IMG/VR virus record: IMGVR_UViG_3300045988_146535
DNA: 36,473 nucleotides
Strand: one strand, 5' to 3'
DNA from: a virus
Lineage: Duplodnaviria; Heunggongvirae; Uroviricota; Caudoviricetes
The notes under the pieces were generated by a model. It was not told where the DNA came from. It searched no databases and was given only the letters and a program-made list of their open reading frames with translations. Made by a program: the position numbers and the translations under genes. Positions 23,241 to 31,572 of this stretch are shown here, one piece after another (the stretch's first letter is position 1; every line of letters begins with the position of its first letter).

Positions 23241-24350
23241 ATGAAGAAAATCGAAAAACTGTTCACTGAAGTAATACGGAAGTTGCGCCATAAGAAATTT
23301 ATGCGCTCGATAGCTAGTAAAAGAAGCACAACAGAAAGAAAGCTAAAACGTAATGGAAGTTTAAAAAAAATCGCTCCAGAGAAAATACTTGCTCCAACCA
23401 TACTTGATATTTACAAGGCGGAATATCATGAGAATGTGGTTAATTTTATAGAAAAAATAGAAAACAAAGCAAAGACAGGAAATAAAAAGATATATATATG
23501 TTTTAGAAATACAATTCATATATCGGCTGCTGCTGGCTTATTTCTTCTTGCAAAACTAGAGACGTTAAAAAGCAATCATAGGGACTTAAAATATATCGTA
23601 GCCAAACCGCCAATCAAAACTTCATCAAAAGGAGAACAGCACGTTGTTGATTCTGTTTTGAACAGAATCGGAATCTATGCAGCATTAGGTGTTAAATCAA
23701 GAGAAATGAGAGAAACTCCGTCTGTAAAATGTTGGGAGGTAATTCGTGGCGAACTAGTAGATTCGGAAATTGCAGGAAACTTATTAGAAACAATCACAGA
23801 AAAAATGGGTACCGATTATACAGATTTATATCGTCCCTTGATAGAAGCCATGTCTAATTCAGTAGAACATGCATATCGAGACGATTTATATGACTCAAAT
23901 AAAAATAACAATAAAAATAAATGGTGGTGCTTTGCTGCAATTATGAACAACAAGTCAATTATGAACAACAAGTTAATATTACTAATTTGTGACCTCGGTG
24001 TAGGTATACCTAAAACGTTAAAACTTACTCAAGGTGAAAAGGTTCTTGCAAAGCTAACCGAGTTCCTTGGTAAGCCATTAGTCCTTGATTCAGAACATAT
24101 AAAAGCCTCATTGCAGGTTAAACGAACCCGAACAAAGCTTGGATACAGAGGGAAAGGAGGAACTGATTTACAATCTATCATAGAAAACTTTGAAAATGCA
24201 CAATTACGAATTATATCCAACAAAGGAAATTACAGATATACTCATCGTAAGAAAGCAAGACCAGAGTTAATGTGGGATGCCAAACATTCCATCAACGGTA
24301 CTATAGTTGAATGGAGCGTACCGCTACCAAATGAAGGAGACTCTCAATGA
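23241..24350 (+). CDS. GHKL/HATPase_c-type ATPase (RsbW-like serine-kinase fold) with an uncharacterised N-terminal region
   Basis: 369 aa; N-box-like EAMSNSVEHAY, G1-like ICDLGVGIP (DxGxG) and G2-like GYRGKGGTDL; visibly AT-rich; opposite strand to the flanking late genes. Confidence 0.6.
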   Translation: MKKIEKLFTEVIRKLRHKKFMRSIASKRSTTERKLKRNGSLKKIAPEKILAPTILDIYKAEYHENVVNFIEKIENKAKTGNKKIYICFRNTIHISAAAGLFLLAKLETLKSNHRDLKYIVAKPPIKTSSKGEQHVVDSVLNRIGIYAALGVKSREMRETPSVKCWEVIRGELVDSEIAGNLLETITEKMGTDYTDLYRPLIEAMSNSVEHAYRDDLYDSNKNNNKNKWWCFAAIMNNKSIMNNKLILLICDLGVGIPKTLKLTQGEKVLAKLTEFLGKPLVLDSEHIKASLQVKRTRTKLGYRGKGGTDLQSIIENFENAQLRIISNKGNYRYTHRKKARPELMWDAKHSINGTIVEWSVPLPNEGDSQ

Positions 24351-27349: not shown

Positions 27350-27725
27350 CCGCCGTTTTCTCGTACTTACTGATAGTGATCTCGACCTTCCCTTCCGGGA
27401 TAACCGGTCCCCACTCCACCAGCATTCTTTTCACCTGGCTGTCGTCTTCCCACACACCCGCGTGGGTCAGGGCGTCAAACAGCGCCTTGTTATAGTTGTC
27501 CAGATCGCGGATCCGGTTATCCGGAGGAAACAACACAATCTCCACTGAAGCAGGTGCCGACGTTGGTTTCGGCAGACGACGTAACTGCTCAACTATTGCT
27601 GCGCACGCCGCGCTCTGGAATTTTCGCCCCGCCGCACTTATCAGGCTCTTACCAGCGAATGCCCCTTTGTTGGGGTGTCGCCAGTAGGTGTTCACGCTGG
27701 GTGGAAAAGGCAGAATCAGCTTCAT
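27336..27725 (-). CDS. rusA: Holliday-junction resolvase RusA
   Basis: 129 aa; RusA-like DLDNYNKALFDALTHAGVWEDDSQV core. Confidence 0.75.
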   Translation of the reverse strand: MKLILPFPPSVNTYWRHPNKGAFAGKSLISAAGRKFQSAACAAIVEQLRRLPKPTSAPASVEIVLFPPDNRIRDLDNYNKALFDALTHAGVWEDDSQVKRMLVEWGPVIPEGKVEITISKYEKTAGAAA

Positions 27726-28081
27726 ACTTTCACCCCCCTCTCATGTAACCAGTGGGCTGCACGCAGCCTGGCGTTTTCCTCACCGGCAAGCAGTGAGCGG
27801 ATAATCCCGACCGCCTCGCTGTCGTCATCCTTCACCGCGGTATGAAGCGTGATGCCCCGGGCCACGCCACGCTTTATCGTGATGACGCCTTTTTTCTCCA
27901 GTGCGCGAAGATGCTCCACCGCTGCATTCACTGAACGGTATCCCAGCATGGTAGCCACCTCCTGATTGCTTGGCGGGAAGCCACGTTCTTTCTGGTAAGA
28001 AATCAGCATATCCAGCACCTGCTGCTGGCATTGAGTTAACGTCGTCATTAAGCCCCCACGTAATTCCCTGACAGATACCAC
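27722..28081 (-). CDS. LexA-N-like winged-helix DNA-binding protein (no peptidase domain)
   Basis: 119 aa; LTQCQQQVLDMLISYQKERGFPPSNQEVATMLGYRSVNAAVEHLRALEKKGVI resembles the LexA DNA-binding domain. Confidence 0.5.
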   Translation of the reverse strand: MVSVRELRGGLMTTLTQCQQQVLDMLISYQKERGFPPSNQEVATMLGYRSVNAAVEHLRALEKKGVITIKRGVARGITLHTAVKDDDSEAVGIIRSLLAGEENARLRAAHWLHERGVKV

Positions 28082-28536
28082 TCTTCACCCGATGCAGCGC
28101 GCTTGCTGCTTTTCCGTAAGCACCGCTCACGACGCGCCAGAAAATTGTTTCGTTCTGGCTGGGAGTGGCTTTCACGGAATGCCTCCATCCACACCGTTGC
28201 AGCTCGACGGAATAAGCCCCTGGACTCCAGTTCTTCAGCCTGGCGGGTCAGGCACAAAATCGCCCGGGGGTCGTTAGTGCCGACATAGAAATTGCGCACA
28301 GGTCTGGTTTCACAAACTGGTTCCGGCTCCTGCGATATCTCAGCCTGGCGCGGGAAATGTCTGCGTGTATCCTCTTCACAACGGTGAGCCACACGCCCAC
28401 TCTGACGTAACTTGCTTGCTGACTGCAGAACTCGCTGCCGTGAGTAACCTGCAAAAGCATCCGCAATGTCTCCGGAAGTACACCCCGGATGGGCTTCAAT
28501 GAATTTCTGAACGTCATTCAAAAGACTCATGCTCAC
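28048..28536 (-). CDS. Hypothetical protein in the replication module
   Basis: 162 aa, basic C-terminus; ORF only. Confidence 0.35.
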   Translation of the reverse strand: MSMSLLNDVQKFIEAHPGCTSGDIADAFAGYSRQRVLQSASKLRQSGRVAHRCEEDTRRHFPRQAEISQEPEPVCETRPVRNFYVGTNDPRAILCLTRQAEELESRGLFRRAATVWMEAFRESHSQPERNNFLARRERCLRKSSKRAASGEEWYLSGNYVGA

Positions 28537-29474
28537 CCCCTGAATCCTGCCGGGATCTGGCTGTAGTCCACATTGTCGTAACTGGCTTTGAAGTACGGGT
28601 CTTCGCGTTTTTCTGTGTGCGTGCTGACGGACGGCGATAAGCGCAGGGAAAGCTCATCCCATTTTTCCCGCAACTTCGACGGGCTGAGCACGTTACGGCA
28701 CCAGAACGGATCGCGGCTGACGCGGCTGTACATCTCGCAGATTTGTTTGTGAGTACGACCATCCTGCACACACATCAGGCGAATTTCGTTTGCCCAGGCT
28801 GTCCAGTTCGGTTCTTTGGGACGAACCACCTCGCCGTCACATTCGGCAGCCTGCTCGTACAGGGCGATGATTTTTTTCCAGAGCCACTGTGCGCAGATCA
28901 AATCATCCGGCGTTCCCCACTGGCGCTTTTTAGGGCTGAATACAACCGCATCAGGATGGCGAGTTAAAAAATCCTGTTCATCCGTCTGCGTGTCCGGTTG
29001 CGAAGCGTCCGGACGAGAAGGTTTTTTATCTGACGGATCATGTTTTGATTTTACTGACGGATCCCCGCCAGATTCTGACGGGTGAAAACCCGATTTTTTG
29101 CCAGATTTCGACGCATCAAATTTTGACGGGTCAGATTTTGATGCGTCAGATTTTGACGGGTCAGAATCTGACAGTTGAGAAAATGCCGCTGCCTGAAGCT
29201 TCGCAACGTTAAGCTGATAAACATTCGACGCATTGCGGTTACCCTGGCGACGCGCCTTACGCGTTAACCAGCCTTCTGCTTCCAGCCGTGCGATAGCCGT
29301 TCTGACGGTACTCATCCCCGCGCCAATCTGGCGGGCAATAGTTTCAATTGATGGCCAGCACACACCTTCGTCATTACTGAAATCAGCCAGGCGGGCCATA
29401 ATTGCCACACTGGATAATTTCATGCCTGACGCTGCGCAACCATCCCATACATAGCCGGTTAATTTAGTGCTCAT
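28533..29474 (-). CDS. Replication initiation protein (N-terminal wHTH, DnaT-like C-terminal domain) containing internal iterons
   Basis: 313 aa; low-complexity SDSDPSKSDASKSDPSKFDASKS linker encoded by tandem DNA repeats; position after cro/cII-like genes. Confidence 0.6.
   Translation of the reverse strand: MSTKLTGYVWDGCAASGMKLSSVAIMARLADFSNDEGVCWPSIETIARQIGAGMSTVRTAIARLEAEGWLTRKARRQGNRNASNVYQLNVAKLQAAAFSQLSDSDPSKSDASKSDPSKFDASKSGKKSGFHPSESGGDPSVKSKHDPSDKKPSRPDASQPDTQTDEQDFLTRHPDAVVFSPKKRQWGTPDDLICAQWLWKKIIALYEQAAECDGEVVRPKEPNWTAWANEIRLMCVQDGRTHKQICEMYSRVSRDPFWCRNVLSPSKLREKWDELSLRLSPSVSTHTEKREDPYFKASYDNVDYSQIPAGFRG
29047..29175. repeat. Iteron-like tandem repeats (candidate replication origin inside the initiator gene)
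   Basis: About 6-7 copies of a GATTTTGACGG-like unit at roughly 15-bp spacing, e.g. agattttgacgggtc, agattttgatgcgtc, agattttgacgggtc. Confidence 0.5.
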
Positions 29475-29483
29475 GACCGACCT

Positions 29484-29822
29484 CTATTTCCCTGAATTTA
29501 CGACGAAACTGTTCGAGCGGGCTGAAGCACTCATGCTCATAGCCTTCTCGGAGATAGATAACCCGTTGTGTTTCCGGCTCCCAACGAATGACTCTGACGG
29601 GCACTCCGTAGTGATCTTTGAACCAGCGGTTAACTTCTCGCAAAGGACTGTCTCCTTCTGCCGGTTGAAATCACCCACAGCCCACTCAGCAAAGCTGTGG
29701 GTTACAATTTCCCTGTCACCTGGTACATTCACTGCATAGCAATACTCCACCCTCGCTTTTCCACCCGGTACAGGAAGCGCAATCAGTTGCGAGCGACGGT
29801 AGTGTGTTGTTAAACTGTTCAT
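29484..29822 (-). CDS. Hypothetical early protein (cII-position), translationally coupled
   Basis: 112 aa; ATGA start/stop overlap with the upstream YdaT-like gene. Confidence 0.35.
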
Positions 29823-30382
29823 GCGTTAGTTTCTCCACAGTCACGACACGCCACGGCGCCCGGAGCTGCACACTCGCGGGCGTCATTACTTTCTGAAATG
29901 CAAAAGATTTTGTAGACCAGTGCTGCATGCTCCTGCAGCTTCGAAATTGAGAGATACAGCTCGTCGTTAATTGCTGTCTTCTCATGCGGTTCCACTACAC
30001 CGTCTTCGATTGCTGAACGAATCTGTCTGGAATAACTGCCAATCTGTTCAATGACTTCCAGCAGGCGCTGGTTGATATCAGCGTTGTCCACATCCTCGAC
30101 GTCAGGAAGAGACACAAAGACGCCATTTGCAGACTGCGCCACAGCATCAGCAATGAAGTGAGTGCCACCAGCACGCTGTAAAACCATTGCCCATCCCAGC
30201 GGGAAAATCTGATCGCCATCTGCACGAAGGCGGTTGAATAAAGCGTTTTCTGTTACATCGAGCCAGTCAGCCGCTTCAGCGTAACCCCCCGGCAACGCCG
30301 CGATAGTTTTTCTGACAGCTTTCACGTACCACTCAGGCTGTTTTTCTATTTTCCAGTGATGCTTACCCACGATTAGCCTCAT
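29819..30382 (-). CDS. YdaT-like early regulatory protein
   Basis: 187 aa immediately downstream of the Cro-like gene; weak resemblance to the YdaT family from memory. Confidence 0.4.
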
Positions 30383-31418: not shown

Positions 31419-31452
31419 TTGACAATGTACCTTTGAGATACATAATGTACCC
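31419..31452 (+). promoter_or_regulatory. pL-like early-left promoter with flanking operator repeats
   Basis: TTGACA (31419-31424), 16-bp spacer, CATAAT (31441-31446); 8-bp direct repeat AATGTACC at 31424-31431 and 31444-31451 shares the TGTACC half-site of the cI/cro operators. Confidence 0.5.
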
Positions 31453-31572
31453 AAGAGAAACAACAAACAGGCAGGTCGTCCACGAAGTAGCCCCCTGGAG
31501 CATATGAAGTCCAGGATGATTCGTTGAGTCATGTTGTGCCACTAGGCACTCATGTTAAAGCAGGTGTATGAA

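Follow-up and report, generated by a model that had tools for sequence, protein, structure and literature searches.

The locus raises the question of why a phage replication initiator gene carries, in the middle of its coding sequence, a tandem array of short repeats, and of whether this array serves the protein that it encodes or the DNA itself. By its sequence, the window (the whole stretch of DNA that was analyzed, 36,473 nt) is an SfII/SfIV-type temperate phage, and the gene in question encodes 313 aa on the minus strand (28533–29474 in the ORF list), follows cI/cro/YmfL-like genes, and is 98.7% identical to gene 41 of Shigella phage SfII. The original prediction had placed an iteron-like array inside a replication initiator gene, and had taken it, as in lambda O, for the location of the origin and of the initiator-binding sites. 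The first part of this is confirmed: the whole protein matches PHROG 391 (“replication initiation O-like”, E 4e-134), and the gene is resolved into a winged-helix N-domain, a disordered linker, a lambda-O-type C-domain, and a DnaT-like tail.

The N-terminal domain (aa 1–99; 29178–29474, minus strand) was assigned as a DNA-binding winged helix from AF2, Foldseek, and conserved motifs. In Pfam it falls among HTH_36, GntR, and MarR-like winged helices (HTH_36 at E 4e-11, with weak matches to DnaD_N and RP-C), and no Phage_rep_O match to the initiator was found, which makes the domain probably analogous in function to that of lambda O, yet a member of a different family. The AF2 model (pLDDT 72–90) has a helix-turn-helix and a beta wing, the best Foldseek matches are MarR-type winged-helix dimers on DNA, and the recognition helix STVRTAI and the wing RRxGNRNASNVY are kept across the initiator family, so that on the modeled structure this domain is presumed to be the reader of the iterons. 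Residues 103–163, i.e., the array and the part that follows it, have pLDDT values below 50 and are predicted to be disordered. The C-terminal domain (about aa 164–277; 28644–28985, minus strand) is helical in AF2 (pLDDT 86–93), and BLASTP aligned aa 131–277 with lambda O aa 139–270 (35% identity over 149 columns, E 4e-25), while tblastn with the C-domain gave matches in lambda, 21, 933W, and phi80. This homology surfaced only via tblastn and BLASTP, as Pfam returned no match in the C-domain and a PDB sequence search with the C-domain or the DnaT domain returned only weak MarR-type matches, which fell in the N-domain. Judged from these alignments, what the gene encodes is an initiator of the lambda O type whose DNA-binding domain has been swapped. 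The ydaU gene of the Rac prophage was considered as a homologue with a known origin (oriJ) and was rejected, as ydaU is a DUF1376 gene and unrelated.

Tandem Repeats Finder, the check proposed for the array, recovered it at 29102–29165 with a period of 15, 4.3 copies, 81% matches, and the consensus CAGATTTTGACGGGT, together with a 30-bp super-period (88%), and a repeat search widened the family to 29054–29176, each unit being the dyad GTCA-N5-TGAC. Five tandem 15-bp units occupy 29100–29174, with the family consensus GTCARAWTYTGAC and a free spacer of 2–3 nt. Read on the coding strand from 29174 down to 29100, and in strict 15-bp register, they are GTCAGATTCTGAC, GTCAAAATCTGAC, ATCAAAATCTGAC, GTCAAAATTTGAT, and GTCGAAATCTGGC, and their 13-bp dyad sites lie at 29160–29172, 29145–29157, 29130–29142, 29115–29127, and 29100–29112, the last of which is degenerate. 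A sixth copy, GTCAGAATCTGGC (site 29067–29079), is located 33 bp beyond the five-unit array within the extended palindrome CCCGTCAGAATCTGGCGGG (29064–29082), and is followed by two GATCCGTCAG half-copies. The earlier count of six or seven copies at about 15 bp thus stands for the five units in register, while the sixth is off register and the supposed seventh is a half-site. The array covers codons 101–137 of the initiator gene, and its peptide, DSDPSKSDASKSDPSKFDASKS, with its repeated DPSKS/DASKS, agrees with the Ser/Asp/Lys linker that had been foreseen.

A weight matrix for the sites, trained solely on relatives that are less than 90% identical to the window, identified six strong sites (29158–29172, 29143–29157, 29128–29142, 29113–29127, 29098–29112, and 29065–29079), all of which score on both strands, and one weak site (29035–29049); no site above 14.5 bits was found elsewhere in the 36.5-kb window. 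When up to three mismatches to GTCAAAATCTGAC were allowed, 11 of the 17 strand-hits of the window fell within 106 bp, for which the shuffled sequence (on average 10.55 hits over the full window) gives an expectation of ~0.03. The repeat array is therefore real and non-random.

A period of 15 bp is also a period of five codons, and the repeats could in principle be a low-complexity Ser/Asp/Lys linker made by slippage, with no function at the level of DNA. The predicted disorder of the segment fits such an origin, as does the copy number in E. coli, where 2104 of 5426 complete genomes contain a match to the array region and near-identical alleles differ by exact 15-bp units (5, 6, and 8 tandem copies). 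Species-representative genomes were scanned with the N-domain, which returned 79 loci, ~66 of them with both the N-domain and the array and spanning Escherichia to Yersinia, Pantoea, Rahnella, Proteus, and Providencia. In 66 of 66 loci the array has between one and nine units of the same kind (mostly 4–6), followed by ~20 variable nt and a conserved block. Among residue pairs with the same amino acid, the fraction of identical codons was 0.44 in the N-domain versus 0.90 in the post-array block (60 non-redundant loci), and in 10 diverged full-length loci it was 0.79–0.92 at codons 109–168, against 0.36–0.60 nearly throughout the flanking domains (the exception being a 12-codon bin at aa 241–252, with 0.75). 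Compared with the Citrobacter phage phiNP, the N-domain has 63 differences over 300 nt, and the array (nt 304–353) has none.

Codon usage within the units narrows down what is being conserved. Over 292 units from 60 loci, the first Ser is encoded by TCA (265) or TCG (14) and never by TCT, TCC, or AGY, whereas the later Ser is encoded by TCT (195) or TCC (34) and never by TCA; Lys is AAA in 189 cases and never AAG, and the Asp codon is frozen as GAC. Only the fifth (spacer) codon is free, and it is free at all three positions. The variation that is tolerated within a unit keeps to the dyad symmetry (R at position 5, W at 7, Y at 9), which yields the degenerate palindrome GTCARAWTYTGAC, and one relative (L182) with the same DNA consensus as GTCAGATTTTGAC encodes DPSDFD instead of DPSKSD. 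Slippage accounts for the tandem copies, but not for codons that stay the same from genus to genus next to flanking domains that are close to saturation, nor for two serines per unit with different fixed codons, and the non-repetitive block after the array is conserved even more than the array. The frozen synonymous codons, the symmetric variation, and the changed peptide in L182 mean that neither neutral slippage nor selection on the peptide is sufficient, whereas a dimeric DNA-binding protein fits; we consider a linker without DNA function very unlikely. By this codon-level evidence, what is conserved in the array is the DNA and not the peptide, and it is nearly certain that the array acts in cis as a protein-binding element of the DNA.

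Synonymous conservation of this kind could also stem from an overlapping antisense gene (QILTG…, plus-strand ORF at 29045–29212) or from a structured RNA. At 63 of 66 loci the antisense frame is open over the array and the block, wobble positions in either strand coincide with second codon positions in the other, and the palindromes are able to fold. Yet the frame is open because the repeat unit contains no stop codon in it, and it has no conserved start codon, variable ends, and lengths of 19 to 116 codons, while common unit variants (AAT, GAT, TCC, GAT/GAG) are non-synonymous there; the absent start and the varying ends led us to reject an overlapping gene. A known RNA family was likewise rejected, as Rfam gave just sub-threshold microRNA look-alikes (30.7 bits versus a gathering score of 97). 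Taken as one explanation, the antisense gene or RNA is the least credible of those that we weighed.

The cis-acting DNA element appears to extend well past the repeats. The nearly invariant block, which is conserved at synonymous codons and present in all relatives, lies at 29034–29087, and its sequence after the ~20 variable nt is TTTCACCCGTCAGAATCTGGCGGGGATCCGTCAGTAAAWTCAAAACAWGATCC (about 66 loci). The palindrome CCCGTCAGAATCTGGCGGG with the sixth site falls within it. The block also has two direct copies of CTGACGGATC (29030–29039 and 29054–29063) and two GATC motifs (29036 and 29060) that are 24 bp apart, and 53 of 66 loci retain the pair at this spacing. In many relatives a Dam-type methylase is encoded two genes downstream, and the GATC pair together with this nearby methylase hints at control by methylation. 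The least stable stretch of the gene in the nearest-neighbor profile (29017–29055, AT 0.67) adjoins the block and is a weak candidate for the unwinding region, since about 5% of the 30-mers of the window are at least as unstable as its own least stable 30-mer. In the 10-locus codon profile, the island of suppressed synonymous change covers codons 109–168 (28971–29150), and the cis-acting element probably spans this whole island. No DnaA box was found at 28883–29756, and the count of such boxes over the whole window corresponds to chance.

If the array is read by the N-domain of the protein in which it is embedded, the two should travel together, and the relatives provide several such cases. 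Phage phiNP has the N-domain and the array in common with the window, joined to an unrelated C-domain (Phg_2220_C), while mEp460_4F5 has the C-domain alone in common, the joint being immediately 3′ of the array. Over the scanned loci as a whole, the N-domain and the array are combined with either of two unrelated C-domains, Phg_2220_C at 52 loci and the O-type at 10. Of 120 viral contigs that contain the exact two-unit pattern, 118 have the array in frame behind an N-domain. Where the N-domain has diverged, the dyad repeat is a different one. At 60% N-domain identity, phiP27 L17 has TTCAGAWTCTGAA at 15-bp spacing, and at 59% Kp4866-6 has TCAAAWTTTGA, again at 15 bp; at 43%, phi24B O has three copies of GGGGCAGGAGCTGCCC spaced by 21–24 bp, and at 45% ST13-OXA48phi12.5 has four copies of TATGCCATCTGATGGCAC spaced by 22–24 bp. 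With different N-domains, SfV orf39 and mEp460_4F5 have their own arrays (spacing of 24–42 bp and about 23 bp, respectively). All of these differing arrays are placed directly after the winged helix. An array that changes as the N-domain diverges and keeps its position would, by analogy, follow the iteron logic of lambda, P22, and phage L. The O protein of “P27” (PMC7466680) was examined as a possible relative of phiP27 L17 and rejected, as it is lambda-like and has ATCCCTCAAAACGAGGGA iterons.

The position of the array can be compared with that of the lambda origin through the C-domain alignment. Residue 139 of lambda O aligns with residue 131 of the initiator, which places the four lambda iterons (O codons 117–145) at about codons 109–137 here, and the array thus lies at the place homologous to the lambda iterons. 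The second part of the original prediction, a lambda O-like location of the origin and of the initiator sites, is accordingly supported by the C-domain homology, the dyads, the position, the conservation at the DNA level, and the linkage to the N-domain, and the array is found in relatives that are functional, i.e., in the plaque-forming or inducible SfII and SfIV. On these grounds, we estimate at roughly three in four the probability that the array represents the iterons of a lambda-type origin inside the initiator gene. Against this reading stand the weakness of the A/T-rich candidate, sites and a spacing that are shorter than those of lambda, the missing partner loader gene, and the finding that a host regulator (SrsR, see below) is the sole protein with demonstrated binding to the boxes. 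Our literature search returned no report of origin mapping or of an initiator-binding assay for the SfII/SfIV-type initiator family, and no paper that describes the SfII/SfIV-type array as an origin. Small plasmids that carry the gene were considered as proof of autonomous replication and rejected, as they proved to be an excised e14 circle and a prophage fragment, which are uninformative. An origin would hereby be assigned to a very common temperate phage family of E. coli, Shigella, and other Enterobacterales, which includes the serotype-converting SfII and SfIV as well as the K-12 cryptic prophages CPS-53 and e14.

Iterons can also have roles other than initiation, as in plasmids, where autoregulation and handcuffing are among their secondary roles. 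The initiator might accordingly bind its sites for autoregulation, for “handcuffing” in copy-number control, or for the exclusion of related phages, with the origin elsewhere, and the weakness of the candidate unwinding element would be compatible with this. Such a non-initiating array is nevertheless quite unlikely in our view, given that the search of the 36.5-kb window turned up no other cluster of sites, that the arrangement is collinear with the functional origin of lambda, and that the ~180-bp conserved island reaches well past the binding sites.

With the array read as an origin, the following sequence of events can be proposed. The initiator would be translated from an early rightward-type operon, and its winged-helix N-domain, as a dimer, would bind the 13-bp dyad sites GTCARAWTYTGAC, namely the five tandem sites and the one embedded in the palindrome. 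The resulting nucleoprotein complex would then destabilize the adjoining conserved, GATC-bearing, A/T-richer stretch (~29017–29063), and the lambda-O-type C-domain with its DnaT-like tail would recruit the host DnaB-DnaC directly. That the initiator binds these sites, where the DNA is unwound, that replication starts here, and how the helicase is recruited are all inferred from sequence comparison.

Direct recruitment of the host complex is proposed because genes for P, DnaC, or a helicase are missing from the phage: the initiator gene is followed by PerC-like, LexA-DBD-like, and RusA genes, with no partner loader P downstream, and none of the three was found in the complete SfII genome. The C-terminal tail SQIPAGFRG (28536–28562, minus strand) is identical at eight of nine positions to the end of E. 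coli DnaT (SQIPPGFRG), and among the relatives it recurs on both types of C-domain, whereas lambda O is without it. A literature search for the binding partner of the DnaT C-terminal tail returned nothing specific, and recruitment of DnaB-DnaC via the DnaT-like tail is put forward as a conjecture. One possibility suggested by the similarity is that the initiator replaces the phage loader by the nine-residue end of DnaT and thereby docks on the host DnaB-DnaC route. A lambda-O-type initiator without a P protein would in that case illustrate a route for single-protein phage initiators to capture the host helicase.

The array boxes have also been met from a different direction. In the K-12 genome, the strongest gSELEX peak of SrsR (YgfI, a LysR-type regulator) was reported in the “yfdO/yfdP spacer” of prophage CPS-53/KplE1, where a 66-bp DNase I footprint covers the boxes TCAaATTTTGa, TCAGATTTTGa, TCAGATTTTGa, and TCAGAgTcTGa, and the yfdONMLK mRNA goes down in an srsR mutant and up on overexpression, from which SrsR was described as an activator of yfdONMLK (Kobayashi et al. 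2022, PMC9181523). These boxes are the plus-strand reading of window positions 29115–29170: against the footprinted boxes TCAGATTTTGC, the units of the window read TCAAATTTTGA, TCAGATTTTGA, TCAGATTTTGA, and TCAGAATCTGA, which match, and the K-12 copy of the array is identical to the published boxes. K-12 yfdO is a 5′-truncated copy of the initiator gene (99.6% identity) in which codons 1–78 are deleted and the array is kept, and it is only because of this deletion that the array appears to be intergenic in K-12. The SrsR study makes no mention of iterons or of an origin (PMC9181523).

It follows that the array might primarily be a cluster of SrsR operators that activates downstream transcription, with its conservation reflecting regulatory use. 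In favor of this are the gSELEX peak, the footprint on four boxes, and the yfdONMLK response (PMC9181523), SrsR being the only protein that has been experimentally shown to bind the array boxes (PMC9181523), and also the genera for which SrsR orthologues are named (Escherichia, Citrobacter, Kosakonia, Klebsiella, Yersinia, and Hafnia), a list that coincides in part with the hosts of the array. In the intact gene, however, the array lies ~300 nt inside the coding region, and a consensus scan of 28400–29900 found no sigma-70-like promoter. The nine other SrsR targets match the box at just 7–9 of 11 positions, so that the “SrsR box” is essentially defined by the phage array, and arrays occur in Providencia and Proteus, for which no SrsR orthologue is listed, although this comparison is not rigorous. 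Since an SrsR operator leaves the linkage between array and N-domain, the allele-specific arrays, and the mid-gene position unexplained, we take SrsR binding to be an additional or accidental use, and regard a primarily regulatory array as unlikely. A dual use, in which the phage iterons are at the same time the highest-affinity genomic target of the stationary-phase regulator SrsR, is doubtful too, if somewhat easier to entertain; SrsR may then directly gate prophage replication or early transcription, or serve as a co-factor of the origin. Under the iteron reading, what has been called the “SrsR box”, like the top target of SrsR in K-12, would be a fossil phage iteron array, which would change how the SrsR regulon is read.

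Among known systems, the iteron reading has its closest model in the lambda origin, which lies in gene O and consists of four 19-bp dyad-symmetric iterons and an AT-rich region, bound by O dimers. The two have in common a homologous C-domain, an array of dyad-symmetric, linker-encoded repeats between the N- and C-domains at a collinear position, and an N-domain that together with its iterons appears to form one exchangeable specificity module. They differ in the N-domain (HTH_36 here versus Phage_rep_O in lambda) and in the sites, which are 13 bp long at 15-bp spacing here and 19 bp at about 20–24 bp in lambda, and the phage described here has a weak AT-rich region, no P gene, and the additional DnaT-like tail. 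Plasmid iterons (pSC101, F, P1, R6K) are direct repeats of 17–22 bp at a spacing of ~22 bp (about two helical turns) and are bound by Rep monomers. They resemble the array in being tandem repeats that bind an initiator (presumably so here) beside an unwinding region (a weak candidate here) and in that copy number matters, whereas the sites described here are dyad-symmetric, shorter (13 bp), 15 bp apart, and within the coding sequence of the initiator, with no DnaA box near the array.

The SrsR box cluster upstream of K-12 yfdO is the same DNA (four units of the window, 99.6% identity), but its published description is that of an operator in a promoter region, used by a host LysR regulator, and the N-domain of the initiator is deleted in K-12. 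Intragenic iterons are finally known from lambda O and from gene 18 of phages P22 and L, with six imprecise 11-bp repeats as the proposed origin in L (PMC8022706). As in P22 and L, the window has short, allele-specific repeats in a distantly O-like lambdoid initiator gene, and the origin is proposed from sequence. The repeat sequences themselves are unrelated, and P22 and L encode a DnaB-type helicase (gp12), whereas the phage described here encodes none.

Beyond the probable iteron array, a second set of short repeats occurs in initiators that carry other N-domains. In SfV orf39, ST13-OXA48phi12.5 and phi24B O, two to three copies of GAACCAGTCAnT lie directly past the iterons (L003 2908-2947, L092 1808-1848 and L090 about 1800-1823 among the relatives' loci), where they code for the conserved motif SFEPVxEP. 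Compared with the GATCCGTCAG pair at 29030-29063 of the window, these repeats look like its counterpart, and the two sets may therefore constitute a second conserved component of the origin. At 29079-29092 on the plus strand, antisense to the initiator gene, CGGGTGAAAACCCG and a run of T behind it form a hairpin that resembles a terminator. It falls within the variable spacer that separates the array from the nearly invariant block, and the spacer sequence that holds it is not conserved in the relatives.

Two further sets of repeats were observed in the window. At 23897-23977, four copies of AAATAA precede 2.2 copies of an 18-bp direct repeat, CAATTATGAACAACAAGT, which holds two DnaA-box-like TTATGAACA matches; these repeats are unrelated to the array in the initiator gene. 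A 20-bp tandem repeat, AATGTACCCAAGAGAAACAT (two copies, 78% matches), lies at 31424-31462, directly downstream of the cI-like repressor gene.

Upstream of the initiator, two minus-strand ORFs overlap in different frames, both with family support: one of 59 aa (29464-29643), annotated as DUF4222 by RefSeq in E. coli relatives and overlapping the initiator start by 11 nt, and one of 112 aa (29484-29822), which matches PHROG 1170 and K-12 YmfM (“cell division inhibitor”). Directly downstream, at 27722-28081 and 28048-28536 and also on the minus strand, are a PerC-family activator-like gene (YfdN homologue) and a gene whose product is a LexA DNA-binding domain and nothing more. A Dam-type methylase sits between these two genes in SfII, SfV and mEp460, and is missing there in the window, as it is in SfIV.

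The initiator gene also persists as complementary fragments in K-12 cryptic prophages. In e14 (oweE, part of ymfN; L096 4671-4904), nucleotides 1-234 are retained and joined to terminase, while the K-12-type CPS-53 copy (yfdO; L085 3574-4281) retains nucleotides 235-942, the break being at the identical nucleotide in both. The same truncation is present on a viral contig (L167). The common break point suggests either that all go back to a single rearrangement or that a hotspot of breakage lies 66 nt upstream of the array.

Lambda O is without a DnaT-like tail, and the phage in the window has no loader gene. The last nine codons of the window's initiator (28536-28562, minus strand) encode SQIPAGFRG, which is identical at eight of nine positions to the residues that close E. 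coli DnaT (SQIPPGFRG), and such a tail or a variant of it (e.g., LPENSGFRS) recurs in relatives of both C-domain types as well as at the end of SfV orf39.
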